Source of the DNA: Balanoglossus misakiensis
Taxonomy: Eukaryota; Animalia; Hemichordata
Direction: 5' to 3'
Assembly: GCA_040954595.2 (NCBI GenBank)
Contig: CM082581.2
Coordinates: 248,001 to 312,000, forward strand
Length of the DNA stretch: 64,000 nucleotides
Position numbers and translations under genes: made by a program. The notes beneath the pieces were generated by a model that had not been told where the DNA came from, searched no databases, and saw only the letters and a list, made by a program, of their open reading frames with translations. Below, piece by piece: positions 4,090 to 59,236 of the stretch. The stretch's first letter is position 1. Each line of letters opens with the position of its first letter.

Positions 4090-5100
4090 CATCCAAAGGG
4101 ATCTGACAAGGGTGTCCCCTTCATTTTTTGTTTGTCATAGAAATTTTCGCGACTATTATATTAGATTTAGGGTTGACTATCTGATCTAGACAAACTAGCA
4201 GCGTGGGCCAACAAATGGAAAATGTATTTTCATCCACACAAATGCTCTGTTCTGTCAGTAACAAGGAAACGTTCAATGATAATTATCCAGTACAGTTTAA
4301 ACGGGAAGATAATCAAACACAGCTCATCCGAAAAGTATCTAGGGTGCACACTGACAGCTGATCTTGATTGGCACCAACATATTACTTTAATATGCAACAA
4401 AGCAAACAAAACACTTGGTTTCCTCCGTAGAAATCTCAACATAGGATCAACATCGGTGAAAGAGAAGGCATACACAACACTTGTAAGACCACTAGTTGAA
4501 TACGCCTCCACTGTTTGGGACCCATATGAACAGACCGACATAGCTTTGTTAGAAAAACACAAAGACGCGCTGCACACTACGTGACTGGCAGATTTCGAAA
4601 TCGCTCTAGTGTTGACAACATGATAAATACCTTACATTGGACATCATTAGAACAACGTAGAAAAGAAGCCAGACTATCGATGCCATATAAAATTTCAACA
4701 GGAACTGTTGCTATGAACAATCTTCAGCATCTCCAACCCCTGCTAAGACTCACTAGACACATGCATATAGTAAAAGTTATAAAATTCCCAAATTCAAAAC
4801 AGACTACAGAAAATATTCCTTCTTTCCAAGAACAATCAAAGACTGGAATAGTATACCACCAGACATCATATCTGCAGGGTCACACGAATCCTTCAAATCT
4901 TCTTTGGCACTATACTTCACCAAACCAGAAAACTGACATTTTTGATGTCCTGTACTAGGGTGCACTCACTGGCAAAGCCTTCAATATGTTGAAGTTGGCC
5001 AGTAAGGTAGATAGATAGATAGACTAAAAGATAAATGGTGTCTACGATTCCAAACACATAAAAATTACACCAGTTGTGGATGACACAACATTATTTTATT
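4090..5100 (+). mobile_element. Degraded L1/Tx1-like reverse transcriptase relic, interrupted by a younger LINE
   Basis: (R)QGCP-like motif near 4100 and KITPVVDDTTLF (YADD-like) near 5060-5095 flank the insertion. Confidence 0.45.
4178..5023 (+). mobile_element. 5'-truncated CR1/L2-type LINE (RT C-terminal region) with (TAGA)n tail
   Basis: WANKWKMYFHPHKC...YLGCTLTADLDW...KANKTLGFLRRNL...YTTLVRPLVEYASTVWDPY; frameshifted; ends in gtagatagatagatagac. Confidence 0.85.
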
Positions 5101-6896: not shown

Positions 6897-7930
6897 GTAA
6901 TGTCCAAACACTAGTGAGCATCTATACTTTATACATTCTGTAAAATGACGTTATGCAACATTCGGGTCATTATGAATAAAGTGCATGAACGAGGCTAGGC
7001 ACTCTCACTCTTACATGCCGGACTTGGTGTCTCGTGTTGTCATTATTGCCCACCCACGATTCTATATTTGGCGACGAGGACGGAGAACATGGAGAATCAG
7101 CTAGCCGTCAATGCCGAGTTTTCCTGTTCATTCAGACCCGACAACCACCAGTACGAGATGGAAAAAGTACATGGCTAGAGTAGAAAACGCATTTGTCGCA
7201 TTCAACATTACAGATGACAAGCGACAACGTGCACTGCTATTGCACTGGGCAGGTGAGGAAGTTTCCGACATCTTTGATACTCTACCAGATACAGGAACGA
7301 GCTGTGAAACAGCCAAATTAAAGCTTACGTCGTACTTCTCACCCAAACAGAACATTGAATACGAACGATTCATCTTCAGAGACACCATACAAAACAACGG
7401 CGAATCGATCGATGCCTATCACACTTGTTTGCAACGCCTAGCAGAAACATATGTGATCAAGAGGTCAAATCACAAATCATACGAGGATTCACATAAGCCC
7501 GTCTCAGACGTCGTGCTCTTCGGGAGGAGACGACACTAGAGAATCTACTGAGTACAGCCCGTTCGTTTGAGGTATCAGAGGTTCAGGCTAGTGGGATTGA
7601 GGAGAAAACCCAAAATAATGGTGCAGATACGGCATCTGTGAATGCGGTCAGAAAACAGCGCCATCAACGCCCGAAACAAAATAAACAAAAGAGAGCTCAT
7701 CAGCAGCCAGCGAAAGGACCATCCACTTGTTATTATTGTGGTGGCACCTATCCACATGACTCAGTATGTCCAGCTAAAGGCAAGTCATGCAGGAAGTGTG
7801 GCAAACCTAACCATTTTTCCAAATGCTGCCGATCAAGAGGCAAGGCAAATAGGGTAGACAAGGATGAAACTGTCAAAGCTGTGCATAAAGTGGAAGACAG
7901 CTCGAGAGATGAATACTGCTTCACTGTCAT
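6897..7930 (+). mobile_element. Truncated Ty3/Gypsy (Mag-like) LTR retrotransposon: putative 5' LTR, PBS and frameshifted gag
   Basis: AATAAA in the putative LTR; PBS TGGCGACGAGGA at ~7069; gag RWKKY...RQRALLLHWAGEEVSDIFDTL; tandem knuckles CYYCGGTYPHDSVC and CRKCGKPNHFSKCC; breaks off at the protease start. Confidence 0.85.
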
Positions 7931-8799
7931 TGTCACAGTCGCACAGAGCTCACACAAGAGGAAATTACACTTTCTGTTGAATTCACTGCATCCTGCTAAC
8001 TTTAAGTCATATATCCACTGAAACATTAAGTTATCGAATTTTCCATCGCAGTATTCTGTTTTATATACATGTATAGCAGTCCCACACATATTGATTAATT
8101 TGACAAAAGAAACTGACTTACAATTTTCACAGCACTCCCCAGTATAGCATCCTTGGCAGGTGCACGTCAATGCCACACACAAGGTTAGGGTTGGCAAGTG
8201 TCGCCATTTTGACATGGGTTGTTAGCACTGATCAATTCCTACGCATGACAGAAAAATGAAGAATTAGGCTATGGGCCAGACCTGCCTATCGTTTCAAAAT
8301 GCACTCTGTATATTAGGGTCTATTTCTTTTACATAAAAAGCAAGTCTTCTTGCATTAATATGATAAAAGAGAAAAAACTTCAACTTAAATATTGCGTCCT
8401 CAGAGGTAATATCGAGCCCTAAAAATCAGGTATGCTTATGCGGTTAAAGGTCGCGCAGTTCTCCTTATAACAAGCGATCTGATTGGTGGTTACGTGACTG
8501 GACCAATCACAGAATGCGTTATGTCACTCAGCAGTTACACACACAGGGCAAACTATCAGGCAGCTACATGTATACTATTATACATGTTACAGAAGATTAA
8601 ACAGAATTTTTGATAAGGAAAGTTTGAGCAGACTAGTCCATTCAATGTAAAAATAGCGTCAAGGTCACTGTGGTCCCATTTGAGGATTATGCGGAAACAG
8701 TGACACACCATAATAAAAATTACAGGTGACATTGCAAGTAGATATGATCTTACGATATAGAAATATGGAATGTAAAAAAATTAAGATATGGTAAAGTAG

Positions 8800-14250: not shown

Positions 14251-16511
14251 AAACAGTTTTTGTTGATATTTTGTATACAACTTGAACGTGCTGCAAAAAC
14301 ACACCGGGAAAATTTATGCAAAAACTGCTCCGTTAAATTGTTCTTTTGGATGTTCCGAGCCTTTCCTGAAAGTTTCATGATAAAAAAATTATCTGGCATA
14401 CCAATTCAATCACAAATAAAAACCATAACATTATGGCGAAGGGCAGAAAAGTAGCGAAATACGCAAAGTTTAGCGACAGTTCACGGCGAAGGATCGCATT
14501 TATCTGGGTCAAACTCCTTTCCGCTGGCCTTTGGGGTTCCCAAGAAGCGTAAAAATGTCCATAATTTGGCAGCCTTTAATGTACAAGCAAGGCTATCTAT
14601 CGCTGAATATTGCAAGAATCAGTGTTTGCAAGTTACATTTAAATGCCCTTGGCTAGGGGAACCCGTCCTTGTGCGCATGCGTAGCGTCTTGTATAGCAAC
14701 AAGTCGCTGTGGGAGTCCTACATCGCTGGTTGAGTATATGCGTTTGCCTGTTCCGTGAGCGTGACACGATTGGGGAAAAATTGATGCGAAAGCTTCAATT
14801 TTTAAGTCCGAAAGTGGACTTACAGCAAAACGTGTCAAACGTACAAGCAGCCAGGGCCAAGAGAGACTACTAGTCCGAGCAGGACAGGGGAAGAATCTGA
14901 ACATGGACCGGTCGAACACGGCAGTCAATCATACGCACGTAACGCAGTCAACCATTGCCAATCAAGAGTCGAGCTCACTCCGTTGGCGTAAAAAGATGTT
15001 CTATCGAGTGGCAGTGGAGAATTTACAGATTTTTCAAACAACCTCAATTATATGCCGTCGATAATAAGACTCCCTAGCTTCCTTGTCAGGTGTATGAAAT
15101 TAGCTATCATAAAACCAGCCATATCTTGTTACACGTTTATTGCCCAGAATTTTTCAATGTTTTAATTTTTCTCAAATACATTTTTAGATATAAATTCAGT
15201 GGTTTTAAATGAAATTTTAACTGACACCCTAGCATTTCCAACCACCTTAATTGGGTGTTTACTTTTTGAAACATTACAAATAAAAGTGTGCACAATGAGT
15301 TGTCCGGAGACATAATTCAAAATTCATAGACCGATAACTTCACTCGGTAATACCACAGGATCTGCAATATATTTACATTTCTCCAGCTAGCGAGAGAGGC
15401 AGTTTATTTACCATTAGGAAATGTAAATTGTATGTGAAGCATACGGTTACAGGTGACACACTCATTTAATCGGCCTCCATGCAAAGTGTACAAAACTGAT
15501 ACAAATACAAGCAAAACAGCTTGATGATTCTAAAGAATAGGGAAAAGATTTTATTGTAGAAAAAATGTGTGAAATGTGGCAGCTCAGGGGGCTTTCATGG
15601 TGTGCCATACAGGCTTAATTTAGATTCAAATGACCAACCTTGGAATCAATCTGCAAGAGTTTCTTCAGCAAAATGATAACAGAACTTCTCTGGTCAGGAG
15701 TAGCACCATCACTCCACCAGGACTTCAATAAATTCCAGTTAGATAATATGGCTGCGTGTACTGTCATGCCTTGACTGAAATAATTATTGAAGAACATCCA
15801 CAAAAAACTAATATGATGTAAACACCTTCTGATCTATTTTGGAAAATTCTGATTTTGACCTTTTTTGATATTTACATAAAAAATATCTTAATTAGACTGA
15901 TATTGAACAGTATAGGGCATAATTTTGGCATACAAAATTTTATTTTTAAGTCTTTCATTCTGTTATGCTTAAATATTCTGCACAATTCTGCAATTTGCTA
16001 ATCATTGCATAAAACATACTTTTCATATCCATTGCATTTAAAATGTAATTCAAAGGATTCGGCTTGAGTCAATGAATGCATTTCAAATTTCGAATGACCA
16101 AATATGTCATCTAGTTAGACAACTAGTAAATGCATCATTTCTTCAAGTAAATTAAGAAGTAAAATAATTCTATCATAGTAGAACACAAAAATGATGACAC
16201 AAAAACAAAGCTTTCTGCTTTTAAGTTTTTATTCATAAATTAATGAATGAAATAAATTCTTTTTACAGCAAGAAATTAAAAAAGAGATATTTTACAAAAA
16301 AAGTTGAAGATAACCTATGATTTTTCACAGGCACTGTGATTTGCTGGATATTGTACATCATGTATTCATAAATCTTAAATGTTTAAAACTGACTTATCAA
16401 ATTAATATCTTTTGAGTGTGAGAATGTTATGCTTTGCCCTTGTTAGTAAACCTTAATCTAACCTTCGTAATTCCCACAGAAGAAAACAACAACAAAAAAC
16501 CATAAATGTCC

Positions 16512-17546
16512 ACCAGCGCTTAGAGATGGTGCACAATGGAAGGCCATCTCAACACCCCATCCCTGGTTTATAAACAAGACACCCAAACTGTTTCTAAAGA
16601 CGGTGCACAATGGAACACCCTGTCATACAGGTATACAGTTTTCCTGTAGTAACAAACACATTTCAACCAGCGCTTAGAGATGGTGCACAATGGAAGGCCA
16701 TCTCAACACCCCATCCCTGGTTTATAAACAAGACACCCAAACTGTTTCTAAAGACGGTGCACAATGGAACACCCTGTCATACAGGTATACAGTTTTCCTG
16801 TAGTAACAAACACATTTCAACCAGCGCTTAGAGATGGTGCACAATGGAAGGCCATCTCAACACCCCATCCCTGGTTTATAAACAAGACACCCAAACTGTT
16901 TCTAAAGACGGTGCACAATGGAACACCCTGTCATACAGGTATACAGTTTTCCTGTAGTAACAAACACATTTCAACCAGCGCTTAGAGATGGTGCACAATG
17001 GAAGGCCATCTCAACACCCCATCCCTGGTTTATAAACAAGACACCCAAACTGTTTCTAAAGACGGTGCACAATGGAACACCCTGTCATACAGGTATACAG
17101 TTTTCCTGTAGTAACAAACACATTTCAACCAGCGCTTAGAGATGGTGCACAATGGAAGGCCATCTCAACACCCCATCCCTGGTTTATAAACAAGACACCC
17201 AAACTGTTTCTAAAGACGGTGCACAATGGAACACCCTGTCATACAGGTATACAGTTTTCCTGTAGTAACAAACACATTTCAACCAGCGCTTAGAGATGGT
17301 GCACAATGGAAGGCCATCTCAACACCCCATCCCTGGTTTATAAACAAGACACCCAAACTGTTTCTAAAGACGGTGCACAATGGAACACCCTGTCATACAG
17401 GTATACAGTTTTCCTGTAGTAACAAACACATTTCAACCAGCGCTTAGAGATGGTGCACAATGGAAGGCCATCTCAACACCCCATCCCTGGTTTATAAACA
17501 AGACACCCAAACTGTTTCTAAAGACAGTGCACAATGGAACACTCTG
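16512..17546 (+). repeat. Subterminal tandem array: 154-bp unit x ~6.7, each a dimer of 74- and 80-bp subunits
   Basis: Identical units; AGA(T/C)GGTGCACAATGGAA occurs twice per unit. Confidence 0.95.
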
Positions 17547-17876
17547 ACAACTGTGATCAAAGGGTTAACACCTTGCTCCAGGAAGTTCCATTGTTACATC
17601 TCTAAACAAAAGAATGGTCAATCACACACAATAAAAGTCTTTGTCTTTGCTTCTGACAAACGTGTTCTACTGTCTATGCTACTGAGAACAATTTTGAATG
17701 GAGAGATAGTCAATTCATTTAACCATAGAATACATAGCTCAACTTTATGCATATCCTACATGGTAGATCCAAGGTATGAATAGTAGTAATTCATGAAAAT
17801 CAGATTTTTTGATTTGTGTGGGTTTGCAAAAAGAAAAAGTGTAGTGGTAGGTTCTGTGCCTGGATACTGGTAGCCC

Positions 17877-20800
17877 CTAAGTTTCCTCATGTAAACTTAC
17901 AGTTCGGTATTTTATCTTCAACTCTTCTACTGTGACTTTCTTCAACATATTTCTCATTGTGAGAGCAAAGTCCCAAAGAAGAGCAGCTTCTTTGGGCTGC
18001 CAGTCCTCCCAAGGGGTTTTCTTTCTTCCTATTTTCTGATATGATGGCTGCCATGCACTGTTCCATCTCCCTTGATACCAATGTAGTTTAAATTCATCCT
18101 GGTTAACTTCAACAACTTTGCCAATTTGTGGGATCTCTTCATATTCAGGACAGAAGACTGCCACCATGACACCAGGCAGCAGAGTTTTGTAGTCATCCAT
18201 TTGCTGGACTGCCCTGGCTCTCTTCCCCTGTTTTCCTATCACAATCTTGAGAGAAAGACACATTGTAAACAATTTTGGCAAGACTGACATGACTTGAAAA
18301 AGCAATATGAAAATGCAGCTTTGCTGAATCTGTTGCCTCAAAACACTGACAATTTCCAGCATTATTTTGTTAAGTTGCAATACCATTGCTAGCATGGCAA
18401 TCAGCTTGCATTGTTCATTTTTAACATTTATATAATCAATACCAAATCATCAGCATTGTTTTATTTTAAACGAATCCTTGGCTACTATGCAATGAATACT
18501 GAGCAATCAAGTCAATATTTCACAACTGTATATTTAAAAATTGGCATTAGAAAATATCTGATAACCAGCTCGCAATATCCATTAAGTGAATATGACATAC
18601 CGGTGGACATGACGCAGTTATTTTTTCTTCAATTTGCATAATATTTGTAGGTGCCTCTGCTTCCTCAATAATTGGTGGTGTCATTGCCTCGGTCAGTCTC
18701 AGGAGTGGCCAACTTTCATGTCTGGCTGGAACCTTAAAAATAACAATACAACAATAGTGTCATTGTTTGACTTAAAGGGAAAACACTTCCAAAGCTTCTG
18801 ACTGCACAAATCACAAGTGAGTGATGGTTAATTGTAAATTGAAAATATTATTATGAATTGACAGATGTGGTCATGCACAGACACACATGTACATGTATAC
18901 ATTTCACATAAGAAAACAGTACATGTATTACAGATTGCAAATATCCTGCCAAAAAAAACACAGTATAACAGAACGCAGAAAATATGCTTACACATCTTGT
19001 CACTTACTTGCTCATATTGCTCTATTCCTCTGAAGAATGTTTTCCAATATTCTTTCGCACTGTCTGGCAAACGGCTTCCATATCCGTCTGGTAAGTCTTT
19101 GATCAGCTTGTTTACATCAATTTTCTCAAGACAGGGTTCAACAAAGTCTGGTATGTCATTTACATCAGGGATACTCTATAAGAAACATAACATATTGTAG
19201 ATCAGTGTGCAAATTATGATTGTAAAACTCTGTGATCACTCGTGAGAGTGTTTACCTGCATCAAAATTTATGATCAAATTCAGTGTTTCTGGTGTCGAAG
19301 TGGGCCTGTTTCTTAGTATAATGTATGTAATGCATGTACATTTTATGTTCAACATGTACATGCCAAACCAGGCCTGCACAAACGTGGCGGTGGAAAACCT
19401 CGGTTTGGGGGATTATACCTGAAGTGTGAACGTCTTGGTCAACACACTGGACACGAAATTGTATAGAATGATGTTGGTTGTTTATTGGAGGGCAAATATC
19501 AGCCACAAGGTGTCATTGTTATGTTAATCACTGTCTAGCAACAGAGTTACTGGAGAGGGTTTTCCTCATGTATGCATTCCTATATAGTTTTATAGATGCA
19601 CTTTAATTTGAAAGACCTCGCATGGCTTACGAAATAAAATATTTCATTTATACACAGGTTGTGGTATAATACTCACCGTGAGACATGTCAGACCATAAGA
19701 TTCTTCATCACCCTCTTTATATTCTGGTAACCAAGGATCAGAGGACCACATCTTGTAGTGCATACGCACCTTCCCCTCAAACTTTCTAAAGCGAAAACAG
19801 TGGGGCACAGAGTGTCCACTGAATGTGCTCTCCATGTGTGGTTCAAGCCATTCCTTAATGTTGTATAAAAACTTTATTTCTTGTGTATGGATAGTTGGGG
19901 TGTAACTGTGATGAATTACATTCTGCAAATCTGTGAATTGGACAAAAGTAAACAATGTGTTTGATTAATTTGCCATGAATGTTAGAAAGAGTATTTAAAA
20001 TAAACATAAAATTTTGGAGTTTTTTAATATGTGCATGTTTAACAAACCATGAATATAAAGTTATGGGTGACATAATAACAGAATTATTGTAATTCACAAT
20101 GTCATTCTCAGGGAGAATGTAGACAATGACATGAGAACAGTTGGTATGTCTAGGCTTTGGGTGAAAGGACATATTTCTTGACCAAACCTACTGATAACAG
20201 ATGCAGTAAGATACGAGATGTCTCTTCAGCTAATATAACTGGAGTGCAGCTGCTAGAAACAAAGATTATTCACAAAAATGAACAAGTCATAAAAATTCAC
20301 AGTATTGTCCAGAAAATTAGCTTATTCATTGTATGCATACCTGAAATTGTATAAGCGTTGGTAGTATAGAGAGCTGTCGAAACTCGGCTGAACATTTGAT
20401 CTATGTCCTGAGAAAATAAACAAAGAAAGTATTTTAAGTACTATCTGAGTAATATTCTATACAACGTTCTCAGCCTGCAAGTGTTTTGCAATCTTTATGA
20501 AATCTAATTGACAGGTAATTTTTAATGAGACTGTTTTGTGTTAAGTATGCCATTTTGTCTCCTTCATGTGACTCATAAGTGTTGGCCAAAATTAACAATA
20601 CTCTTGCTCCACTTTGCAAATTAATGATATGTTCTCGGCAAGGAAGTGTAATTGCAGACAACTGATAACTTATAACACATGCAATATTTCGTTAAGACCT
20701 TGCTGTAAAAGAGGTGTGAGGTTTAGACTATCAGATACATGATGGCAATTACTGGTGCTAGGTCATTTGTGGGATATTCACAAGATAAATGTTGCATATT

Positions 20801-23800
20801 AGGACATTACATACCTCATGGGTGTGTCCCACTGGCAGGAAGTGAAACAGGACCTACATAACAAATAAAAAGATACCGTATTACTTCCAAAACATGAAAT
20901 GATGAAAGTGTCATGCAGACATATTTCCTAACATAATGACCAAAACATAAATTTGTTGATTAGTGTTCTCCACTTTGAATGACATTGTAAGCTTCTAGTC
21001 AACTCTTGAAGTAATATCTGAGTATAATGATGTTAGCATTTTGATATAAAAAGAAAATATACCTCCTCAAATATGTTGTATTCAACAAGCACACTCGCTA
21101 ATGACAACAGAAAGCGGTTTTTATTCTCCCGATAACAGTTGTCAAATTGAGTATGCAAGTTCCGGCCAAGTCTATCAACATTTTCTTCTAGTGTCCACAG
21201 CAAGTTGTTCATAGTAAGATTACTATCATGAGGAAACTGGTTCATATCCAGACGCACATAGGGAATTTTTCCTTCAGCAACGTTGGTGTGGAATATATCT
21301 CCTAGGGGGTGAAAAAAATAACGGAGTCATTAAATTTGTCCAACATGCATTCTGAGGACACGTGGGCAAGTACATGTCCTCCCTCTAAAATTTAGTTGGT
21401 TCTATGGTAAACCCTTGGAGCTTTTGCACAGAAATACACAGCATTTGTTGCTACAAGAATCATTTAATTTATTTTCAAACCATAACTGCAAGTGGACAAT
21501 CATTCTACCGTAATTACATATCACCCCATTCATGTCATGTATACAGTGTATATTTCTGCATATACGTTAAGATCTACAACTAGTATTACACAATAGTAAA
21601 CTAGTACCTGTCGCATGCATGGGTACTCGAAGAAGGTGTTCAGTATTTTTATCATCTTTCACTAGTCTTGGCACGTTGGTTTTCTTCTGATCCATTGCAT
21701 CTTGTATGATACAGGTCAGTTCACGTGGCTCTCTCACAGCCTTTTCCCGTGCTGTGTGATAAAACATTCTCTCTGTGCTGAAACCACAAAAAATGAGAAT
21801 TTCCACAATAAATGTTTAGTGAAAAATGGAGAGTTGATTGCCTTCATGTAAACACATGTGCATGCATAGTTGTCAATTATCATATGAACTGATAAGATAA
21901 CTAAAAAAAAAGAGGATTAGCAACTTGAAAGATTGTCACTGGTTTGTTGTTACCCAAGTTTATGAATAGAAACTCCGGTATCAGGTGACAACAAGTTAAT
22001 GGGGCCAACCTGTCATGGAAGCCTTCCCTCACTCACTGAGTGTGTGAAATGACACGCTTCAAAATGTTACACAGAATGGTGATATACATTTCCATGTTGA
22101 GTTAATCCATTAAAAAAGTATTAGATTATTGTGAGTTTGTCCAAGTGTATTTATCTCAATGCAATTTTAATTCTTACAATGCAACAAAAACATCAAAGTC
22201 ACTATATTTGAGGCCACCTGTTCATCTATTTGGAAGACTTCCTGTTACCCACTGAATGTATGAAAATGACTAGCCTACATCCATGAGATTACAAAGGAGG
22301 ATGGTATACATTTCCATTTAAATCCATTTCTTTTTTTTTCTGGTAAAAAATCTATCAAATCACATTCATTGTTGAAAAGAAATTACTGTAAAGGCCACCA
22401 AATAAGAAGTAAAGGGGATTTTTTTTTTCAGTTTTTAATGACAATGGCCTTGTAACGAATGGTCAATAGCGATGTACACGTATGTCCTGACCAGACATGG
22501 AAATGTGTAATCTTGGCAATGGATGACAGGAATAATTTCAAATACATTGTACACCACATACATGTATATACTCACCGTATTATGTCTTCATGTTGCTCTT
22601 TTGTTCGCCGTATTGCCCTTCTCTCTGAGTCTGATCGTGCTTTTTCCAAGGCCTCTCGAATTTGAACACAGTCGCCACATTCACTGAATTCAGATCGCTG
22701 TTAATGAAACAAAGCATAAGAAATGTTTGGTGAGATATTGGTTAGAGGAGGTGTTACTAAGGAGACTTGTCATTGAAGAGATCGAATTAAACACCCAACC
22801 TGGCATCCGTGAAATGCAATCATTATGATGCAATGCATGTATACACAAGTCAGAGTAGGCCTGTAATTTCTCACAATTTCGATATTATTATAAGATACCA
22901 GACGTTATGAACATTCATTTGAAGGAGAATGTCAGTACCACATTTTTCCAGTTCAAATCATTTTGGAAGCCATATGGCAGTCTTCAGTAGGAACAGCCAC
23001 AGAACAAAACATAATATTAATAGGCCACAAGGTGTGTGTAGTATAAAAATACTGCTGGTGTTCTATTATCATGACAGTGTTTTGTACATCTTGACAGTGT
23101 TTTGTACATCTTGGTAAATAAGGGAAAAATGTAGAGATATATGCATAACTATAAGTATAAGCACACAATCCCATTAGTCATAATTACCTGTTCTATTACG
23201 AATTCTGGCAGGAATTTCAACCAAATGGACCTGAAGTAGGAGTAGCTTATTACATCTTCAGCACTGTTACGTTCTAGAAGTTCCCGCTCCATTCTGGCAT
23301 ATAGCATGGTGTAATTGTAGAAGACTGGCAACAGCACTTTATGTCTGTGAGGCATAAAGTCACCAATTCGTTCAAAGCGAAATCGCATCCATCCCAGAGC
23401 CCTTGCTGTTTTGTCTAATTGCCACCGTCTACCTTTGTTTTTGTGAAGAATTACTCTCTTGTTATTTTGAAAAGCATGCTTGCATTCATTGTATCTTTTA
23501 AGAGATACATTATGTACCAAGCACCATGCTCTTTGGCATACACGTTTGCCATTTATGACTAACATTGTCACTACAACTGCTTTGGTCTTGACATATTTTG
23601 TGTAGGAGTGCTGTCTTATTTGGTTCAGAATGTACTGTTTTTGTTCACTTTCACTGCTCAGTTCCTTGAAGGCACTCTCATTCTGTATTATGTCAAGAGG
23701 ACTTAAATGCTGTAAACATTTTTCCTCACAACAAGTTTGGAAAAGAATGTTTCTAGGATCCTGCAACGGCATAGAAATTCTTCTCCTTTTGAGTGGTGTT

Positions 23801-23934
23801 GAAGCCTTTGGTGTTGAGCAAACCAATTCAGCCACTTCAAAGTCCCCATCTACTAGAGTGGTATTTGATAGGTCTCCATACTCTTCTCCAGAGTCCGTGT
23901 ACTCCCCATCTATTAACGTAGAATCAAGTGAACC
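17877..23934 (-). CDS. Spliced Sola-like (DUF7869-type) DDE transposase, about 770 aa or more. Exons: 23188-23934, 22576-22697, 21608-21777, 21063-21301, 20815-20853, 20341-20407, 19677-19930, 19008-19175, 18601-18732, 17877-18245; possible first exon 24518-24572
   Basis: All junctions are GT-AG and phase-compatible. Motifs: CCEEKCL, INGKRVCQRAW, FSECGDC, IIQDAMDQKK, FPHDSN, QFDNCYRENKN, FLPVGHTHE/DIDQMFSRVS, PHCFRF. No internal stops found. 5' end uncertain. Confidence 0.88.
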
Positions 23935-24572
23935 TACAAGAATAATGGGTGAAATTGAAATGTTTGCATACAAGGGCATGACTTCTGAATAAAAAAAAAA
24001 CACTGACCATTATGCATGTGACGTTTGGTAACATATGAGTGCGTCCGCAAGTACCATTAATTTGACGTGTTTTCCAGAAGCGCTTAAAATGTTGTTTTAT
24101 TTTTTTCCTCGAAAAATACGGCAAACGATCTTACCTACTGGTATTGTAAGATCTGCAAAGTTTCAGAGATTTACCGACAATGCAACTGGCATGTGAAATG
24201 GCCAGTCTTCTGCCGGTGAAGGTGACAATTGTGATGGTCGTTTTTTGTTCGGTCGAGTTAAACTAATCTCTACATGAAACTAAACATGACAATTTGAAGA
24301 CATTTCTATGATTTTTATTCTTATATTGTCACGACTAGATCGGTTTAAAATGCATGTTTTTTCATGTGCACTGACATTGTGTCACCTTCAACGGCCGAAC
24401 ATTGAAAAGGGATAACATGCACACGTACGGAAGCTGGTGACGTATGGAAGCTAGGTCGGTGACAGTTGTCTGTACCATAATATTATTATGCTCAATGAAA
24501 ACTGTTTGAAAACTTACCATTTTCCGATACGTCAAAAGTTGATAGGTAATCAGTTCGAGTTACGTTAGCCAT

Positions 24573-25109
24573 ATGAAAGCCGTGCCAATAGGATCGCTCT
24601 TCGAACAAACGAACTGCTCCACAAGTACGAAAGTTTACTACCAATCTCTGAACATATATGACCTCGAGCAGGCTAGTGTGTGTCATGTGACTTTGGCCAG
24701 GTCACTGCGCCGACGCCGCGCATACAGCTGGTTCATCACAGAATCACAGTTTTACAACGCAGGAGTCAAGATCAGTTTTTTATTCGCCGCGCTGTTTGCA
24801 CATTTCAACAAAATGACGTCTTTAGCACACCTTGGACTTAGCGTGGGTGATATGACGGACACGCTTTACAGCTTGTTTGTTTCCTGTTTCAATAAACAGC
24901 TGGTTATGAGTAAAGCGCGAGATGATCGGACAAGCCATTATCAAATATGGCTTCTCGACGTTTCACACCTATACTTGCAGCAGGAGTACAACTTCCGCTA
25001 CTGGGACTTGCATTGTTTACAGTTTGCTTAAAAGCAGAAAGCATCCTTGGCTTTCTCCAGAAGCAACTGCAACTCACCCTGAGTAAGTTAGCACACGAAC
25101 AACGACAGC
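24573..25109. promoter_or_regulatory. Putative bidirectional promoter between the transposase and cargo gene
   Basis: ~540-bp relatively CpG-rich gap between two head-to-head candidate ATGs (24572 minus, 25110 plus); inferred from position only. Confidence 0.4.
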
Positions 25110-28100
25110 ATGACCGGCAAAAGAAATTGGTGGTTTGTGCGGGAGAAAAAAGTAGAAGGCCACGCTGGACCCGATGACGCTGTGTACATGTACGTGACTC
25201 AACCATCCGTGAACGGTCCAAACAAACACCGGGGCACCCGTCTTCGAAAACACGGTAAAAAGTCTGGATCTCAGCTGAGTGACATCGACTGTTGTCCAGT
25301 GAAGAAAGTTGCAGTTGCCACCGTAATGGACGAAAACAAAAAACCAGGCATTAAGGTAAATTGTAGTACTGCTTGTTAGTGGGTTCGTAGTGGGGATGGG
25401 AGGGGGGGGGGGGTGCACCCGTAAGTAGACTCAAAAGAAACATTGTTTGGCATGAGCATAGTTAAAAACTGCACAAGGGTGTACGTACGTGAAGAAGTCA
25501 ACTTCGGGTCATATTTAGTTATGATTTTGCCAGCACGCATTCAAATCAGACAATAAACTCCCACAACCTAGCTCCGCTTGGCAGGGCTGTGTGTTGTTCC
25601 TGCCACGCAGAGCAACCCACAACCCAGTGTAAATTGACTGGCGTTTGCAATATTTATTCAATTTATTACGTGTGCTTCCAAACTGAATAAGACCACGATC
25701 GACCATAGCTGCCAGGCCATTTCCGCTGTTCTAACGGCTTGCATATGAAGGTGGTATTCATCTTCATATTTGAATTTCATTAGTCACAAATGAGTGTTTT
25801 GGTGTTTAATGATTTACAATTATAGTTTTATTCTTTATTTTAGGTGATTTTCTATGGGAAAGACCGCCCGATTATTTTTTTCAAGCCCCAGTTTGAGTGG
25901 AACAGGAACGAATTCTGCCAACAGTTTGCAGAAATGGAGACAGTGGATTTTGTTGATAAATTCAACAAAATCATCAACTGTGAATCCACTGGCGATAGGT
26001 GTACTCAGTCAAATGATGACAGTTTCTCATCTGAAGATTCTGTGTCTCTCTCATCAAGTCCTGCTCCACTCTCATCTCAGTCGGTGACATCAGACGATTT
26101 GGATGTTGCCGATGTAAGGTAAACTACAGCAAAGTTTTTTTTATTAGCTTCCTAATGCTACCACTCAATGTATTATGGGTATAGTTTTTACTAAAGCGTA
26201 GAGTGCTAACGTGTTTTTTTTTCAGATTCCCCCACTACAGTAATTAATATTTACTAACATTTTGTTGGTGTTTCAGTGATACCCCCAAGTCACGCAAACA
26301 AAAAAGAAGAAGAAATATTGACTCTCTTGACGTTCCCAATCTAGTAAAACATCGTAAGAAGGAAACCACACCGGATCCTATGAAATCGGAAATATCAGCC
26401 TGCAAAATAGGTAAAAGCTTACAGTCAAAACATCTAAAACGGTTTGCAGGGTTACCATGCATTTGTGTTTGTTCAGAGATGGAAATGTACACCACTTTGT
26501 TAATTTACAATAAATTCCCTTTGCTGTTCAGCGTTAGGTGATGCTTATTACATGCAAAAGTTATAATTTTCCAAATATTCAGTGATGTATTCTACTGTCT
26601 TTTAGCCTGTTATTTTATAATGATGTATAATGATTTCATGTCAAAAGAATGTAGAGAATTACACATGCATGAACATACACTATGTATGTTCTTGTATGTA
26701 TGCATGTATGTGTGTGCGGGTGTGGGCTTATTCCAATATGTTTCATCATCATCTAGCTGTATCCAAGTCCCTTATTGTGGTCACTGAAACCTCCTTACAT
26801 GAATTCTCTCGATTTGTGAAATATCAGATTGGTTAAAGGATACTGAAACATATTTTAGCATGACTTAACATAAACCTTAAACTCTTATTTTCCCCCATTA
26901 GGATTACACAAGTTACATATCAGTAACCTGGAAGTCGGCACAAACAGAGAGCTCGACGATGAATTTGTGGAGTTCTTGGTAAAGAAAATGGAGGACTTTA
27001 CTGATGAAAGTTATCAGCCATATTGTGTTGTAATAAAGAATGTGACCAAGGATGAGTTTAAACCAGAAAATGTAAGTTTTTCCAGTTTAAATCATGTATT
27101 TTCATCTATTTTTACACACATTGATCGATCTTTGTTCAGTGAAACTTGATACCATTATAACATATGCAGTTTATAGTCAATATTTCTTCTACTTCAAGAA
27201 GATGGGGGCACATTGATTTTGTTTTTATTCAAGCCATATACTGTAGTAGAATATGGGTTTGCTTGTAATACAGGGGATGAATACATGTCTATGATAAACC
27301 ATTTCTCAAGTTGCTGTAGACTTAAGTAAACCATAATCCAATATTTTGGTATTTATTCATCATTATGGTTGAAATTTTTATTTTTATCTGTAAGGTTAAT
27401 GGTTACAAATACAGAATTATTGGTGGCCAACACAACTTCAAGGCTGCCTGCATCATGGCTGAACAAGATCCAGACAACAACCTGTTCAAGTCAAGATTAT
27501 GCACAGTTTATGCAGGACTTACAGTGCAGCAGGAGCTCTTTCTTATGAAGCAACACAACGATGTCGCTGGATACATCCACAAATTTACGTTGAAGGATAA
27601 GGTAAGTTTTCCAGTGTTCAAATGTGATCAGCTAACTGTTGTTTTATTTTTTTTTAACTTGTTGTTGGTTCAAGTGTCAAGATAAGATTGTTACACATTA
27701 TTTCTTAATTTGTGTCAGACTTTTTTATCACTGTTTTTGAGTGTTGCCTGCTCAAACTTAAGTTTTGTATGAGAATAATCTAAATTGTATTATTAATATG
27801 CATGTTATTTACATTCATACATACATACAGTATTGTAAATTTACCGCTGACTAGTGGAAATGCAATTCTAAATATTAAAAAGCATGACTCCTTTTATTTG
27901 TTTCAAACAAATTCATGTCTTCTTAACTTTCACAGGTCAAAATAGCCCGCCTAAGACGAAGTGTAGAGGAGAACAGAGCTGAATGGATAAATGGGTGTCG
28001 AGAGATGTTGCAGGAGGTAAATAGTTTTTCTTGAAACTTTTTTGCAGTATTTTGTGCACCACCCACTAAAAAGAAATGATTTCAGTGGTTTCACAGAGAA

Positions 28101-31100
28101 ATAACATGGTGTACGGTGCAATGAGCCTGTTTAAAGCGGTATTGTGGCTACATACATATTTAAACTTGGTTACATCTGTTGTTCCCATGGTGAGGTTGAC
28201 AATCAGGCAGTTCATATCACCAGCAGGGCTCTATAACTTTTTAATTTTCAGAAGTTATAAGCCGAAAACACCTAACCAGTTTGGTCAGCATAACCGTGAC
28301 TATATTTTGAATAGATTCTAGTGTATTTACCTGGTTTTAGCTGAATAGACAACTTTCATTCAATTTAATGTACATGTATATCAAAAATTCAGTGACTGGA
28401 GTTTTTGACTCTAAAATGCCAAGTTAGCTATCAAACATGCTGCAAAGCAATGTCAGTTTAACCATCAATGAGCAAACTGCTCAATCCCAGAGATTGCAAC
28501 AATAGCCAGCATTTTAAGTCAGAGGTCACATGCAGCTGAATCAGAAAACGCACACAATTTAGCCAATAAATTGTCAGTTGAGGTTACTTTCTGTTTAGTG
28601 CTGCAATAGTTCAAACTTTACTTTTATAACCTTTGAAATGTAATTCAGTGAACAGGTGACAGATCATTGCTTTGTGATATTTAATTAAGCTATTATTTTC
28701 TTTTCAATTTCCAGAACCGTAATGATAACAACACCGTGTGCATCTTGGCGGAGTTGCCAGAAGACGTGTATCAATTATTCAGAGATGTTGTGCAACTGCA
28801 TGAAGAAGGACGACTGAAGAATCAACGTCTTTCAAAGAAAGAAAGGATGCACAAACCAGATATCAAGGCATATGTGTTTCGAGACCTTGCTTATCTGAAT
28901 AGAGCTACAATCAAGATTCAACTGGAACACTTGCTGAACAATGTAATGACTTTATCAGAGTTCATGACTGAGAACACTTTTCTCAGAAGTCTGGCGACTG
29001 TGCAGAGACATTTTATGGCCCAATTAGGACTAAAATCGTGGGACGAAGTTGAAAAGATGTATCCTTACCATGCAACAAGGGAACACCTCAAAAGATATGT
29101 CGACCTGAAGTTCAAGCATGGAACCCCAGAAGTAATGGTTCAGGCATGCCATGCTCTCAAAGACAAAGGACAAGAAAGACCAGTAGATGACGGCCATGCA
29201 CCAGTACAAGAGAGTTTCATTGGCCTGCATTGTACGAAAAGCCATGCTGTGCTGTTGGCGCCAAAGGAGGTTAGCATGTCAGAAATCAGGAGAGTAACAG
29301 CAGATTTCTCAGGTGCTGCACTGTGTGTATTGAACATGCCAGAAGTAAGTAGTTGTTTATTATCAGTGGCAGAAAATGTAAGTTTAAGTATTATGTGTGG
29401 GAATATAGGTAGGAATACACAGTAAATTACCTACAGTATATGCATTTCCATTGTCCACCATTGTCCACACAATTTGTGCAAGTTTCTTTTTCCCTCCATA
29501 AAGTTACTACATGTAGTTAAATATCTTGTAGATTTTTGTCGACCAGGCTTGTTGTTCTGAGTAATTACCTAGCGATAAGTTGTGTTATATCTATTTTAAT
29601 TGTTTGTGTTAAAATTGATTTGAGACTCATTTGTGAAAGCAGTTGCCTGAGCAATGTCAAGTTTACTAAAAAATAAGCATGCAGCCAATGGAATAAACTT
29701 CACATAGAAATTTCCCTTGATGTATCTGTGGTTAGAATAAAATCTGACCAGAAGTGATGACATCATGGCATAGTTTAAAAAAATGTTACTCAATATGTTC
29801 TGATGCCATGTGACCTTGTGTATCTTGCAACCATGAAAAATTGTATATTATTTACAAAAAAGAATATAGTACCCCCATGTGCATATTAATTTATATATTT
29901 TTTATTTGTTCTTATTCCAGGCATGGAGTAATGACGACTTGACGGAATTTGCGGTGGCATTACGGTCAATGAATCTGGATAGTGGCGTGCCATATTATAC
30001 ACTGGTGGTGCCAACACCTATGTCGAAGATGAGTGAGATACAGCGAGTTTTAAGAAAAACTGAAATGTTTACTAGAGTGGAAGATGTTTACTACTTCGTA
30101 GAAAATACAAAGTCAGGTGAGTGTGTCTCAATTACAGACCAAATCTGAGAAGTTTGAGCTTGCTTTGTTAATTCTGAGGTCTAAATATTGAGGGTTGTCC
30201 CTGTTGCAGCATATGTCTCTAAAAAGGTCATATGTTGAATATGTCATGCATATTGATTTAAATACACAGAACAAAATACCTTTTTCTACATTAGCCATTT
30301 GATTTATAATGAGAACAGAATTGTAGTGCACTATAACTGATTGTAACTCCTGACTTCACATATAGTTTTAGAATATCCGTATAAAATAATTTTATATTTT
30401 TGTTACGTTTATCTAGTGATCATGATTCATTCTTATTTCTGTGCATACTAAGTAATTTCGTGTAAATTTTCCTTGTGAAAGGAAAGAATACATTCTGGAA
30501 GAGTGTTCATGGCGTGGTGGTGGCATTCTGGTCTTCAACTGATCAAGTAACTGACGGCCAGGTCAATTTCAACGGGGAACCACATCATAACCTGCTCAAT
30601 GTCTGCATGGATAAGCTGCTGACAGATGAAAATGGGATAACCATCGATGAAAATCAAAGGCCCATAGAGTTGATAGAAAGATTCATCAAGTTGTTTACCA
30701 GAGCTGGAGATTGGGTCATCGAAGTAGCAAGCAGTACAGGCATGTATAAACATCCATTTAGCTATTACATTTACTGGCTTAGCTGTTAATTGTATCTCTG
30801 TTGTTATCTGGTCTTGTTAGCTCACATATACACCCTATCATACCTATATTGCAATAGGCGCTTATCTAGCAAATGTGTGTCAACATAAAACAATTGAACA
30901 TTTATCTTGATATTTGGTGTTCATATTGATGATATCAAAAGTAGCACTTTATTTTCTGTTTACCAAAATATACTAAGTACAGTCGAGGTTTTATATTCTC
31001 AATTCTTCCAAAGATGTTAAAAATACCGACTGATTAAATTTTCAGGTTCTTCACTGGTTGCGTGCCTACGTCATGGAAGGCCTTGCCTGATGTTTGAAGA

Positions 31101-31209
31101 AGATAAGAACAAATTTGATGCCATTTTGAAACGCGCTACGGTCGAAGAAAGCAAAATGGCAGTTGGCAGCCTTGAAGGTTTGATTGATGAAAGTGAGGAA
31201 GAATCTTAA
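25110..31209 (+). CDS. Spliced ~786-aa protein: ParB/sulfiredoxin-like domain plus C-terminal beta-class N4C/N6A DNA methyltransferase-like fold. Exons: 25110-25355, 25844-26118, 26277-26410, 26902-27071, 27395-27601, 27936-28016, 28715-29344, 29921-30116, 30482-30739, 31046-31209
   Basis: Phase-compatible splice sites (one GC donor); AATAAA near 31250. ParB-like: LHISNLEVGTNRELDDEFVEFLVKKM...YQPYCVV...YRIIGGQHNFKAA. MTase-like: ENQRPIELIERFIKLFTRAGDWVIEVASSTGSSLVACLRHGRPCLMFEEDKNKFDAILKR, matching the QKP..L.ERLI...T..GD.VLDPF.GSGTT..AA...GR...G.E.D consensus. Start codon uncertain. Confidence 0.8.
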
Positions 31210-31499
31210 TTTATTGTATATATTTAACTAGAAATTTTGTTTGTTTTGAAATAAAAAGTTAAGCCAATACCATGATTGTTTTTGAGCCGTTACTTTAAAA
31301 CAACTTTTGTTTTACAAACAACAAACCTCACAGGTGATTGCACTTTACAGTAACAATACAGTTTATGTGAAAAAAAACATAGGAAGACGAGTAACCACAA
31401 ATTAATATTTTGGCTGACAAAATTAATATTTCCAGTAAGCAAGATTTCCCCTAGCCTAGTCCTAGCCGTATTTTGTCCGCTTTGGACTAGGCCTTGACT

Positions 31500-31952
31500 A
31501 GATTTCCCTAAGTTGGAGACGGTTCACAATAGAACACCGTCTCCCCACCTCCTCAGCTTTCCCTGTACCAAAGCAAGATTTCCCCAAGTTGGAGATGGTT
31601 CACAATAGAACACCGTCTCCCCACCTCCTCAGCTTTCCCTGTACCAAAGCAAGATTTCCCCAAGTTGGAGACGGTTCACAATAGAACACCGTCTCCCCAC
31701 CTCCTCAGCTTTCCCTGTACCAAAGCAAGATTTCCCCAAGTTGGAGATGGTTCACAATAGAACACCGTCTCCCCACCTCCTCAGCTTTCCCTGTACCAAA
31801 GCAAGATTTCCCCAAGTTGGAGATGGTTCACAATAGAACACCGTCTCCCCACCTCCTTAGCTTTCCCTGTACCAAAGCAAGATTTCCCGAAGTTGGAGAT
31901 GGTTCACAATAGAATACCGTCTCCCCACCTCCTCAGCTTTCCCTGTACCAAA
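31500..31952 (+). repeat. Subterminal tandem array: 76-bp unit x 6 with hairpin
   Basis: GCAAGATTTCCCCAAGTTGGAGA(C/T)GGTTCACAATAGAACACCGTCTCCCCACCTCCTCAGCTTTCCCTGTACCAAA. Confidence 0.95.
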
Positions 31953-33887
31953 ACTATGCCATCATTCTTTCAATAAGACTTCATGGCGAGCATTTTCAGG
32001 TTTTGATTTTTTAAAAATGGCATTTTGAAATAAGATTGAAATATTTCATTTTTTTACTTGAAAAATATTATCATTTTTTAACCATTCAGTTCAGTATTGC
32101 CATTTATCATTTTGGTTACATGAAATATTTCAGTTTAATGGAGAGTATGCATAAGTGTAATATTTTACAGTAAAATTACTTGATTTTATCAAAATCTGAA
32201 TTTTCCAAAATAGATAAGAAGGTGTTCTGTAGTAGGGTTTGATGACAAGTAGTGTACACAATGGAATTCTGTTTTCCAGTTGCAATTTTTTAGTATTTGA
32301 AATTATGGGTGTGAAGTTTGTTTAATCATGAAATCAGTTTATAACACACCTCATCCACAGTCAGTGTTCTCATTCATTAATCAATAGTCAAGTAGTACGC
32401 GTTCTTTTTGTGCTGATCCATATAAAATGATGTCATCAGCCATCAGTTGTTGGAACTGTTGCACGCCGGGCATCAGTTCCAAAAAATGATGCCTGCTCAC
32501 ATCAAAAACAACATGTTGGGCATGTGCGATATGGAAAGCAAACAAAGATGTCATCTGCGGCCGAAGGAAAGGATAGTTGAGAAATTTCACCATACAATTT
32601 TTGTATCGTGAGTTCTTATGCGTAGCTGCGAATGAGATGTGTTACAAAACACATATTGACTGGCTTTTCAGGCATCAGCATACGTCTTTCACCCCTCGGG
32701 ACTGTGAGTCACCCCCAAAACAGACTGTTTCCCGAGGGCGAAGGTCAAGTGAAACAGTCTGTTTTGGGGATGACTCGCACTCCCTTGGGTTACAGATGTA
32801 TGCTGATGCCCTTATAGCCAGTCAACATGTGTATAATGTGCAGTCATGTAGGGTGCATCAATTTCACACTGATACATACAAAAGAGGACTTACCAGTCAA
32901 AAGTTACATTGTCAGGCAACAGTTCCGAAAACTGTTAAACTGTTGCCTGGCTAGGTTGGAAAGCACCATCTAGACATGCACACTCCAGAAAACTACAAGT
33001 GCAATTTTATCTTTGCCTGAGACCAACTTGATGGCAGTGGAGAAATGTCCTGATTTTATGCTACTGTTGGATGAGGTCTGTTATAAAACACATATGGACT
33101 GGCCGTATTCACGTACCATTAAGAGCATAATTATGTTTGTAGGGACTGCGAGTCACCCAAAAACAGTCTGTTTTGGGGCGATTTATTTTGGGGTGACTCA
33201 CAGATCCGAGGGGACACAATTTTAGTGGCAATTGATTCTGAGAAGCTTACTTTTTCCTAAGGTCTCTATTGTTGGTGATGTGATCCAGCAATCCATTCAG
33301 TATGGTACTAATAACAGTGGAGTTTGACACTGCCTCCTTCATCAGTGTCTGTGTGACTTCCTGTGCATGCAATGCAAGCTGGGTATTGATGGGTATTTTG
33401 AACTGACTGTAGAAGGCTATCCCATATATCCTGTGTAGACCTCTGCAGCACTTGATTTGACAGCCGTCTTGTTCAAAAGCCCTCTTAGAAGCTCTTTTGA
33501 CTGTGGAGAACAGTTGAAATCAAACTCTTTTGAACTGTACATGTATTACATCTTGTTCACAAGACTGAAAAACGGCCAGAAAGTGAAACACAAAGCTAGA
33601 AATATCATGTATAAACTCATTGGTTTGGTGTGCTTTGGTGTGCTTTTGTGTGGTGCAGTGTGCCCTTAACAAACACAATTTTTAAAAGCTTTGAGTCAAT
33701 TTAAGGATATCTAAAAATTTCTCTGAGGCAGCCCTATACATTTGAATGTGGTGTTGATAATTTTCTTGAGTGAACATTGAGCTTGTTGAGTCAGTAGCGT
33801 GACAAATGGGCTAGAGGGCACACTGCTGTGATATGCCATGGTGCGGAGACACTAGGGTAGGGAACAACATTAACAATAACAGACATA

Positions 33888-56900: not shown

Positions 56901-57299
56901 TACGTCATCAACCGGAACTATTTACACTGATTCGCCCGTCGCTGTAACTTTCTTGTGAAACGGAATAAACAAGTGGATGAACCCGTAGTTGTACATAAGT
57001 CATATAAAACTGACGGTTCCATGACGGTTCCGTAAGAATATCGCTGGGTAAAATCAATACGAGAAAGGTAGAATTTGAAACGTCAACGCTACGATCATGA
57101 ATGTGTGCTTGCAGCTAGCGGGCCTGGTCCCGAGCGAGCCAGCACATTGTCTTGATTTTAGGCTTACGGAAGTTACGAGAATGGTTTTGTTCCAGCTGAG
57201 CGGGATGACTAACACTCTGTATTCTGTCCACTGGTCAACGATAAGTATAAGACGTGGAAAAAACATCGCAATTCATTTGTTTGAGAATCGAAAACATTT

Positions 57300-59236
57300 T
57301 AGTGGGGCAGTAAACAAAAAAATCGTGCACTTTGGGTTAAAAGCATGAAACTTGGTACACTTATGCATTGACCCATGGCGGCCATTTTCTGATATGGATC
57401 CAAAGTGACAGCGCCCTCTAGTGGCCAGAAACAGACATTCATACTTAAAAACCGTGCACTTCAGGTTAAAAGCCTGAAACTTGGTACACTTATGCATTGA
57501 CCCATGGCGGCCATTTTCTGATATGGATCCAAAATGACAGCGCCCTCTTGTGGCCAGAAACTGACATTCACACTTTCCCCCCATTAATGGCACTTTTTGG
57601 TCATTTGTAACACTCTGAAACAGGAATGTGGGTTGTAAAACATGCTTGCTACCATACATTCATGTGTATATTATCCTAATCCTGATATGCATGTATCAGA
57701 TCAATCTTGATTACCGTTAAAGTCATATTTGTAAACGCAGGTTTTTTAACAAAGTTGCAATATTTCGACTGCTACAATGATCCTGAAATCAGGGTGCGTC
57801 TAATAATATGGAAGTATGCCAAGTTTCAAAACAAACTTTTTCTGTTCTCAGGAGAAGACATCGCCAAAAATCAGGTCATAAAGAAAGTACTTCCCAGTAT
57901 GCAATCATACATTTCTACTCCTGCTGCATGACTTGTGTTCTTTGCTCAAAAGTCTGAAGCCTATTCCTCATACAGTTCAAAAATCGTTTTATTCATACAA
58001 AGTTTGAGTTTTTGATATTTTCAAGTGTCATGTCTTGTCCATATATTCACCCCATAATGTAATCTGAGACTTAGCTTCTACTTCCACATAAACAATGTTG
58101 CAAATTACGTTACATGCCCATTGATGAAATCAGACACACTGTCTGGGTCAACACCATCTGGGTCAACTACGTCTGAAGCCATGTGTCAATGGGTGACAAG
58201 GCATCACATGTCAAAGTGACAGTCATTGAAAACTTCAACCAATCAGAGTAAATGATTTTAGAGGATAATTAATGAGAGGTCAACTACATGTCAAAGTGTA
58301 TTCATATGTTAATTTCATGCATGTGTCATGACGTTGGTTGACCAGCTGAGCAATTATAGGCAACTGAGACAATGGAAAAGACGTAGACCCAGCAATTATG
58401 GGCAGTTGAAACAATGGCAAAGAAAATCACCGTTAGTCAGTCTTCCACATTGAATGAAAGGGGGCGTGTCCTCCACCATGTTGAAAGCAGGGTGCGTCTA
58501 ATAATATGTACTTTTCCGTTTTTCCAAATCTTTGAATTTGTGACATTGCAACCAGCTCAGAAAAGGGGTGCGTCTATAATTACGACTGCGTCTACAAATA
58601 TGACTTTAACGGTACATCTTCCTTCACAGTAACAATGACCACTGCTGTCAGACTAGACCTAAAGCACCTACAGAATCATGTCCATGACTTTTGGCCACTG
58701 ATTTCCTGAGGTTGACTCTTTTCTTGGGCTTGACTAAGAGTTGTCCAACTTGATTTCCACTGGGATTCTGTTGGTTTGATATAGCTTTGCTAGGTTTCTC
58801 ACAGCACATGTTCTTTAGATGCTGCCTGTATTCTCGAGAACCCTTGACTTTCTGGAGAAGAGGTGTTGTATTACCCCTTTGCATGACTTTGTGTATTGAA
58901 CTGGTTGTTATTTCGAAGAACAAATCGTTCAATTAGTAACATACAAGATTGATCTGATGCATGTACATCAGGATTAGGATAATATTAAAAGGAATGTATG
59001 GGAGCAAGCATGTTTTACAACCCACATTCCTGTCTCTGAGTGTTAAACTTGCCCAAAAAGAGTCATTAATGGGGGGAAAAGTGTAAATGTCAGTTTCTAG
59101 CCACTAGAGGGCGCTGTCTTGTGGGATCCATATTGGAAAATGTCCGCCATGGGTCAATGAATAATTGTACTAAATTTCATGATTTTAACCCAAAGTGCAC
59201 AATTATGCCAAAATGTGGGGTTTAGCTCCTGCACTA
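57300..59236. mobile_element. Non-autonomous TAGTG-terminal (Academ-like) element, TTT TSD
   Basis: ttt|TAGTGGGGCAG...CTCCTGCACTA|ttt; the empty site is visible at ~41396. Confidence 0.8.
57714..58612. mobile_element. TA-flanked Tc1/mariner-superfamily-like non-autonomous element (CCGT termini)
   Basis: ta|CCGTTAAAGTCATATTTGTA...TACAAATATGACTTTAACGG|ta; empty site GATCAATCTTGATTACATCTTCC at ~8971-8993. Confidence 0.8.

Follow-up and report, generated by a model that had tools for sequence, protein, structure and literature searches.

Structure of the element

The window analysed here is a 64,000-nucleotide stretch of the genome of the hemichordate Balanoglossus misakiensis (assembly GCA_040954595.2, contig CM082581.2, positions 248,001 to 312,000 of the forward strand), eukaryotic, repeat-rich and with a GC content of about 38%, and at positions 15821-32227 it contains a transposon of 16.4 kb. 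Two genes lie head to head within this element: a transposase-like gene on the minus strand and, on the plus strand, a gene, hereafter the cargo gene, for a protein that joins a ParB-like domain to a predicted amino-methyltransferase fold. The span is delimited by 38-bp terminal inverted repeats (TIRs), a TGTA target-site duplication and an empty site. The left repeat (15821-15858, plus strand) is identical at 36 of 38 positions to the right arm (32189-32226, minus strand), and the right terminal feature runs one base further, to 32227; since the C at this position is unpaired, the two ends are asymmetric by one base. Matches to the inverted repeats were found at these two sites alone in the window, with a chance expectation of zero. 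TGTA stands on both sides, at 15817-15820 and 32228-32231, and contigs from two sequencing runs, X1 and X2, join position 15816 directly to 32228, so that 16,411 bases are left out and four bases at the joint are ambiguous (X1, X2 and a third run, X3, come from one sample, and X1 may be the window's own source). The element is a TIR-type DNA transposon, probably of the cut-and-paste kind, and the first-pass annotation, which had placed two head-to-head multi-exon genes between TIRs and a TGTA duplication, is borne out, with both genes splicing without stops. No Rfam match falls between 15000 and 33000.

The left flank (15423-15820) matches an X1 contig perfectly at a depth of 483, the empty joint has a depth of 423 and the interior of the element 54-77, a pattern which, contig depth being a weak measure, fits a single filled copy among several near-identical repeats of the flank. 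One filled copy among such repeats implies that the insertion of the 16.4-kb element is likely to be recent.

The transposase-like gene (17877-23979, minus strand) comprises ten exons, 23979/23933-23188, 22697-22576, 21777-21608, 21301-21063, 20853-20815, 20407-20341, 19930-19677, 19175-19008, 18732-18601 and 18245-17877, separated by nine GT-AG introns; read from an ATG at 23979, the frame stays open for 783 amino acids. Its start and first exon are uncertain, alternative donors and acceptors being present; an upstream first exon was tried and ruled out, as it contained stops. Two exons match Pfam DUF7869 strongly (E 9e-21 and 5e-13), and acidic residues near 331, 415 and 454-457, at plausible places, form a candidate triad. 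Given its place in the element and this motif spacing, the product is likely to be a cut-and-paste transposase, putatively of the DDE type. No NCBIfam or other named Atlas match was found for the protein, no mention of DUF7869 was found in the literature searched, and viral contigs searched with one of its exons yielded no relatives; two matches in prokaryote genomes (L009 and L010) were rejected as short chance matches within unrelated open reading frames (ORFs). The last exon (17880-18245) gave a weak Cul7 domain match (E 0.034), perhaps a small beta-barrel reader domain. Within one intron, at 19383-19570, lies a short high-copy repeat (bin depth 720-1680) from which contigs skip 138 bases; it probably marks a minor nested insertion.

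Between the two gene starts, there is a CpG-rich stretch (24000-25109). Its 200-bp windows between 24000 and 24999 have observed/expected CpG ratios of 1.06-1.25, compared with 0.56 in the window as a whole and 0.14-0.26 in the adjoining exon. This kilobase is likely to be a shared two-way promoter.

The cargo gene and its domains

The cargo gene (25110-31209, plus strand) encodes 786 amino acids in ten exons, 25110-25355, 25844-26118, 26277-26410, 26902-27071, 27395-27601, 27936-28016, 28715-29344, 29921-30116, 30482-30739 and 31046-31209, with no internal stop, eight GT-AG introns and one GC-AG intron. Residues 3-760 align to named full-length proteins from Ptychodera and Saccoglossus (P0134, E 1e-107; P0001, E 4e-98; P0141, E 4e-96), so that the model is supported independently of the splice choices, and the start region matches homologue P0006. 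The GC-AG intron, intron 9 (30740-31045, 306 nt), is removed exactly and with zero mismatches in one X3 contig of 365 nt. Although a tool guessed X3 to be DNA, this intron-less contig suggests that it is RNA; the run covers neither the transposase-like gene nor most cargo exons, a gap that says nothing about expression. The search of sequencing runs listed no RNA run containing the element. Compared with a diverged second copy of the cargo gene, 11 synonymous and 11 non-synonymous changes were counted among the 22 listed differences (ratio 0.27-0.40, P 0.003-0.03), and the protein still looks constrained. The second copy itself, assembled in part in X1 and X2 over 29008-30465, departs from the cargo gene at 28 positions, with 21 gap letters, in some 730 bases and has a strand-switching joint (29959/30465); it is probably a rearranged fragment.

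Along the protein follow a predicted ParB/sulfiredoxin-fold domain in exons 4-5 (26902-27601), a central all-helical domain (28715-29200) and a predicted beta-class amino-methyltransferase fold (29200-31209), all on the plus strand. The sequence motifs of ParB and methyltransferase quoted in the first-pass annotation are present. Box II reads GGQHN, motif IV NMPE and the motif I region EVASSTG. On the window's own cargo exons the Pfam scores are weak (DUF6551, E 3.7e-5; N6_N4_Mtase, E 0.045), both under the curated cut-off, and the folds themselves are predicted from a structure search with the model of a Saccoglossus homologue, P0141, which is 28% identical and was predicted with a mean pLDDT (predicted local distance difference test) of 80.5. 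The best solved Foldseek matches of this model are beta-class amino-methyltransferases, namely CcrM (E 3.5e-10) and N4CMT (E 7.6e-8), with M1.HpyAVI, M.BceJIV, M.RsrI and M.PvuII also matched, and the ParB protein of M. xanthus ranks lower (E 2.3e-6). The model thus shows the predicted Rossmann fold with the permuted beta-class order, motif IV before motif I, an order also seen when the homologue is aligned to the window's cargo, and a predicted ParB-CTPase/sulfiredoxin fold with boxes I-III. Across the alignment of the ParB region the R, GGxH and HN columns are invariant.

A phage ParB-type protein ranks first for P0141 in a library of viral models (E 2.8e-11 over 625 columns), and Atlas leads point to phage clusters joining ParB_N and N6_N4_Mtase (0.84-0.86, below the tool's bar); phage fusions of ParB and methylase, a type named in the first-pass annotation, are its nearest structural matches. 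The best Atlas feature matches of residues 170-750 of P0141 are two unnamed eukaryotic clusters, mostly of Streptophyta (0.92 and 0.88), a hint of plant relatives. The central helical domain, modelled confidently from the window's exon 7 (pLDDT 91.5), has no clear structural match: Foldseek returned nothing at E 0.001 and the best VIA match (Z 5.4) lies within background. A search of PDB sequences with exon 9 gave chance matches only. The N-terminal 110 residues (25110-25970), for which no family was found, are conserved in the hemichordate relatives and in Actinia and form beta strands in the P0141 model.

Motifs of the methyltransferase and ParB parts

Motif IV of the cargo protein, NMPE, departs from the catalytic pattern (D/N/S)PP(Y/F/W). 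An automatic alignment was made of 145 rows, 69 of which reach the motif, with 14 gapped at position 4 and some fragment rows possibly misplaced; in none of the 55 rows carrying a residue at position 4 is that residue aromatic. The family consensus reads D/N-x-P-K/E/Q followed by tryptophan, and the loop is five residues shorter than in phage methylases. The phage counterpart of this conserved tryptophan is the tryptophan after the loop and not the tyrosine of the motif. The five phage methylases aligned, all of them stand-alone enzymes, read D(P/L)PY without exception. In the bdelloid enzyme N4CMT the motif IV tyrosine stacks on the target base in a model (PMC10406627), and a double change of serine and tyrosine, from SPPY to APPA, abolishes activity (PMC8885841).

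The S-adenosylmethionine (SAM) pocket of the window's cargo is likewise not intact: the aspartate of motif X, the histidine preceding QKP and the first of the motif I glycines are missing, even though motifs I and II keep their acidic residues; decay of the pocket beyond motif IV is also found in homologues P0139 and P0137. As for the ParB part, the arginine of the GxxR sequence in box II is absent from 21 of the 24 proteins that show the box, the window's cargo among them, and is kept in Actinia (two isoforms), Clastostelium and the metagenome locus L003. An arginine-to-alanine change in GxxR abolished nucleoside triphosphate binding (PMC12704722).

The suggestion in the first-pass annotation that the cargo protein marks the element by methylation is not supported, in view of the family-wide lack of the motif IV aromatic residue and of the further erosion of the SAM pocket in this copy; judged by its motifs, the protein has probably lost methyl transfer. 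Its statement that no disabling mutations could be found holds for the reading frames and fails for the catalytic motifs, namely motif IV, the SAM pocket and the ParB GxxR. Many unnamed exon-sized relatives stop just past motif IV, as exon 7 does at 29344, which suggests a shared old intron position.

Relatives of the cargo protein

With cargo exon 7 as query, word-indexed protein searches were empty, as they were with exon 5, whereas an exhaustive search returned 132 relatives at E <= 0.001. Thirty relatives or kin clusters were looked up, 14 of them without a name, and those named come from Ptychodera, Saccoglossus, Holothuria, Apostichopus, Actinia, Exaiptasia and the amoebozoan Clastostelium. 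Because the family extends over hemichordates, echinoderms, cnidarians and one amoebozoan, a transfer from phage or bacteria, if there was one, probably took place long ago, as far as this distribution of sequences indicates. Searches with the cargo found no relatives in viral contigs or in prokaryote genomes. A quick tree, which has no prokaryotic rows and is not used for claims on transfer, groups the cargo with P0134 and P0139 of Ptychodera (Shimodaira-Hasegawa-like approximate likelihood ratio test, SH-aLRT, 97). The main text of the hemichordate genome paper makes no mention of ParB or of methylases.

Near-identical homologues are dispersed in Ptychodera, where one 90% cluster has eight members on records of six lengths and others have three members on three records and two on two, as expected for mobile genes. 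In Ptychodera, therefore, the homologues are not the single-copy host genes whose finding would have spoken against a mobile system. Many of the database copies are fragments. Three metagenome loci holding relatives (L001-L003) measure 2.0-2.4 kb, too short for linkage, and no transposase match was found on them; in one of them (L002, 1652-1988) the ParB box II segment stands in at least three tandem repeats.

Subterminal arrays

Two tandem arrays, absent from the first-pass annotation, lie inside the ends of the element. The left array (16512-17546, plus strand) consists of 6.7 units of 154 bp and the right one (31500-31952, plus strand) of 6.0 units of 76 bp; the units are otherwise unlike, and share a 17-bp motif that occurs twice in each left unit (14 in total) and once in each right unit, there within an imperfect palindrome. 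All 20 exact copies of the motif lie on the plus strand, with 0.25 expected by chance; as the pattern was drawn from the arrays, so many copies are a product of tandem duplication, and what carries information is the presence of the motif in both. One additional match, with two mismatches, falls in an intron. The hairpin of the right array is more stable than shuffled sequence (z -3.77, 0 of 200 shuffles), whereas the left-array motifs fold no better than shuffles (z -1.2 and -0.5), so that the motif does not form hairpins in general. Directly before the right array, at 31440-31500, depth is high and many loose contig ends gather at 31484, which points to another short repeat.

Discussion

The element is real, intact and well bounded, and is probably a disarmed animal variant of an algal design described only recently. 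The first-pass annotation held that Sola elements are normally described with a transposase only, but the two-gene design is already published for Sola1-1_Ec32 of the brown alga Ectocarpus, a 21.5-kb TIR element in which a gene for ParB and an N4-cytosine/N6-adenine (N4C/N6A) methylase lies opposite the transposase (PMC12477816). Both are giant TIR elements with termini beginning with AAC and a 4-bp duplication, which in Sola1-1_Ec32 is biased to a final A, and both hold the transposase and the ParB-methylase on opposite strands inside the TIRs. The present element differs in its animal host, in its TIR of 38 bp against 282 bp and in its cargo of 786 amino acids against 1104; its own catalytic motifs are eroded, and the comparison with the algal element is one of layout and description. 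A 4-bp duplication is found here as in the Sola superfamily, but animal Sola1 elements prefer AWWT as target (PMC3845634), and the single site known here, TGTA (n=1), departs from that rule and fits the final-A bias of Sola1-1_Ec32; for this reason the element, although it would work like Sola1-1_Ec32, is not filed as Sola.

Three further systems share parts of the design. In red algae, the Plavaka accessory genes PAG2 and PAG3 carry ParB-like and N6_N4_Mtase domains, and tandem arrays of inverted repeats adjoin the ParB-like gene (bioRxiv 10.1101/2025.02.11.637652); in contrast to the present cargo, their ParB is fused to a 2-oxoglutarate (2OG) oxygenase and their methylase to a SET domain, in separate genes and in another superfamily. 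The phage fusions of ParB_N and N6_N4_Mtase from ParB-terminase loci (PMC4738411) resemble the cargo in domain order and folds, whereas their sequence can be aligned at the SAM-binding end only (10-13% of the query), the cargo has introns, an additional N-terminal domain and a long helical insert, and the stand-alone phage methylases keep the D(P/L)PY that it lacks. That source lists eukaryotic methylases derived from such loci, and its available part names no Sola element. Finally, bdelloid N4CMT is also a beta-class amino-methyltransferase fold in an animal and linked to transposon control (PMC8885841, PMC10406627), but it is an active silencing enzyme of the host, with SPPY and a chromodomain, while the cargo protein is encoded by the mobile element itself, has ParB as its fusion partner and shows no aromatic residue in motif IV. 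No animal example of the design was found in the literature searched, which did not include Repbase, Bao 2009, Yuan and Wessler 2011 or Iyer 2011.

We hypothesize that the cargo acts without catalysis, as an accessory factor which binds the subterminal arrays and either helps to pair the ends of this long element or shields it from silencing, a reading to which we give a probability of roughly 0.55. Both genes would be transcribed from the shared CpG-rich promoter, the transposase would cut at the inverted repeats, and the cargo protein may coat the arrays in a parS-like manner, its methylase fold serving as a scaffold or dimer surface. Once bound, it could help to unite the distant ends or protect the element from silencing by the host.

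Several points weigh against this reading. Only one full copy of the element is evident in this genome, and arrays near transposon ends are typical transposase-binding sites. In the central domain, as modelled from exon 7, Foldseek and VIA identified neither the helix-turn-helix with which a canonical ParB clamp reads parS nor any other known DNA-binding domain, and the fold is predicted on P0141, at 28% identity, and not on the window's cargo itself. The spliced X3 contig aligns from 30485, as a second acceptor at 30487 would give, the first 11 letters being unseen; a join at 30487 would shift the cargo frame and bring a stop 83 residues past the start of exon 8, before motif I. The selection test covers 22 of 28 differences, and counting each of the remaining six as non-synonymous would raise P to 0.02-0.15. 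Moreover, relatives retain D, S or N at position 1 of motif IV in 52 of 69 rows and its proline in 38 of 69, and motif I is intact in P0004, P0135 and P0141; these conserved positions fit retained SAM binding in relatives, so far as alignment can indicate.

The reading as an accessory factor may be extended to a wider one, which we put forward tentatively and regard as possible but doubtful: a widespread and still mobile family of giant animal transposons would have made a phage-derived ParB-methylase its dedicated second protein, loading on parS-like end arrays, so that a bacterial centromere-type module was turned into a device for transposition or against silencing, and some lineages may still write N4-methylcytosine (4mC) or N6-methyladenine (6mA) through an unorthodox site.

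It is unlikely that the cargo protein is itself an active methyltransferase which, by way of a non-canonical site (D/N-x-P and then the conserved tryptophan), marks the DNA of the element or another substrate in order to license or protect it. The homologue model retains the whole beta-class fold, motif IV positions 1 and 3 and motifs I-II are conserved in many relatives, a proline stands at position 2 in nine rows, which read DPP- or nearly so, Pfam N6_N4_Mtase is passed by homologues (P0004, E 8e-9), and activity has been proposed for the Ectocarpus protein (PMC12477816). On the other hand, an aromatic residue at position 4 occurs in 0 of 55 rows, the tryptophan that would have to replace it corresponds to the post-loop residue of the phage enzymes, and the SAM pocket has decayed further in the window's copy, P0139 and P0137.

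On another view the repeats of the arrays simply bind the transposase, and the cargo is a passenger that has a different role, such as that of a chromatin or anti-silencing factor acting elsewhere, and is maintained through linkage and a modest degree of selection. This view draws on the lack of an identified DNA-binding domain in the central part, on the erosion of both enzymatic motifs and on the fragmentary state of many database copies. We consider it improbable, given that the array motifs keep the same orientation at both ends while the ends themselves are inverted, that arrays adjoin ParB-like accessory genes in red algae (bioRxiv 10.1101/2025.02.11.637652) and that a brown alga has the same two-gene layout (PMC12477816). 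A single capture of a host gene by this element, the gene having no wider connection with transposons, is highly improbable. It would be in keeping with the three metagenome loci, which at 2.0-2.4 kb are too short and gave no transposase match, but the dispersed near-identical Ptychodera homologues (eight members on records of six lengths, three on three, two on two) and the Ectocarpus precedent (PMC12477816) argue against it.

A transposon design so far described in algae is thereby extended to animals, and the published idea that such proteins bind and modify the element which carries them becomes directly testable on a copy that is intact and apparently young and has both genes, a likely shared promoter and candidate binding arrays. 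Genes with the N6_N4_Mtase fold are commoner in invertebrates than the bdelloid case suggested, and many of these invertebrate proteins may be pseudo-enzymes that give rise to neither 4mC nor 6mA.

Other features of the window

Outside the element, the segments 4177-4958 and 7105-8021 hold what we take to be remnants, resembling the end of a long interspersed nuclear element (LINE)-type protein and a gag-like zinc-knuckle protein; Pfam gave only PNMA on them (E 0.006). Broken minus-strand ORFs of another element occupy 51000-60700 and include one weak DUF6589 match (E 7.6e-6, under the cut-off).

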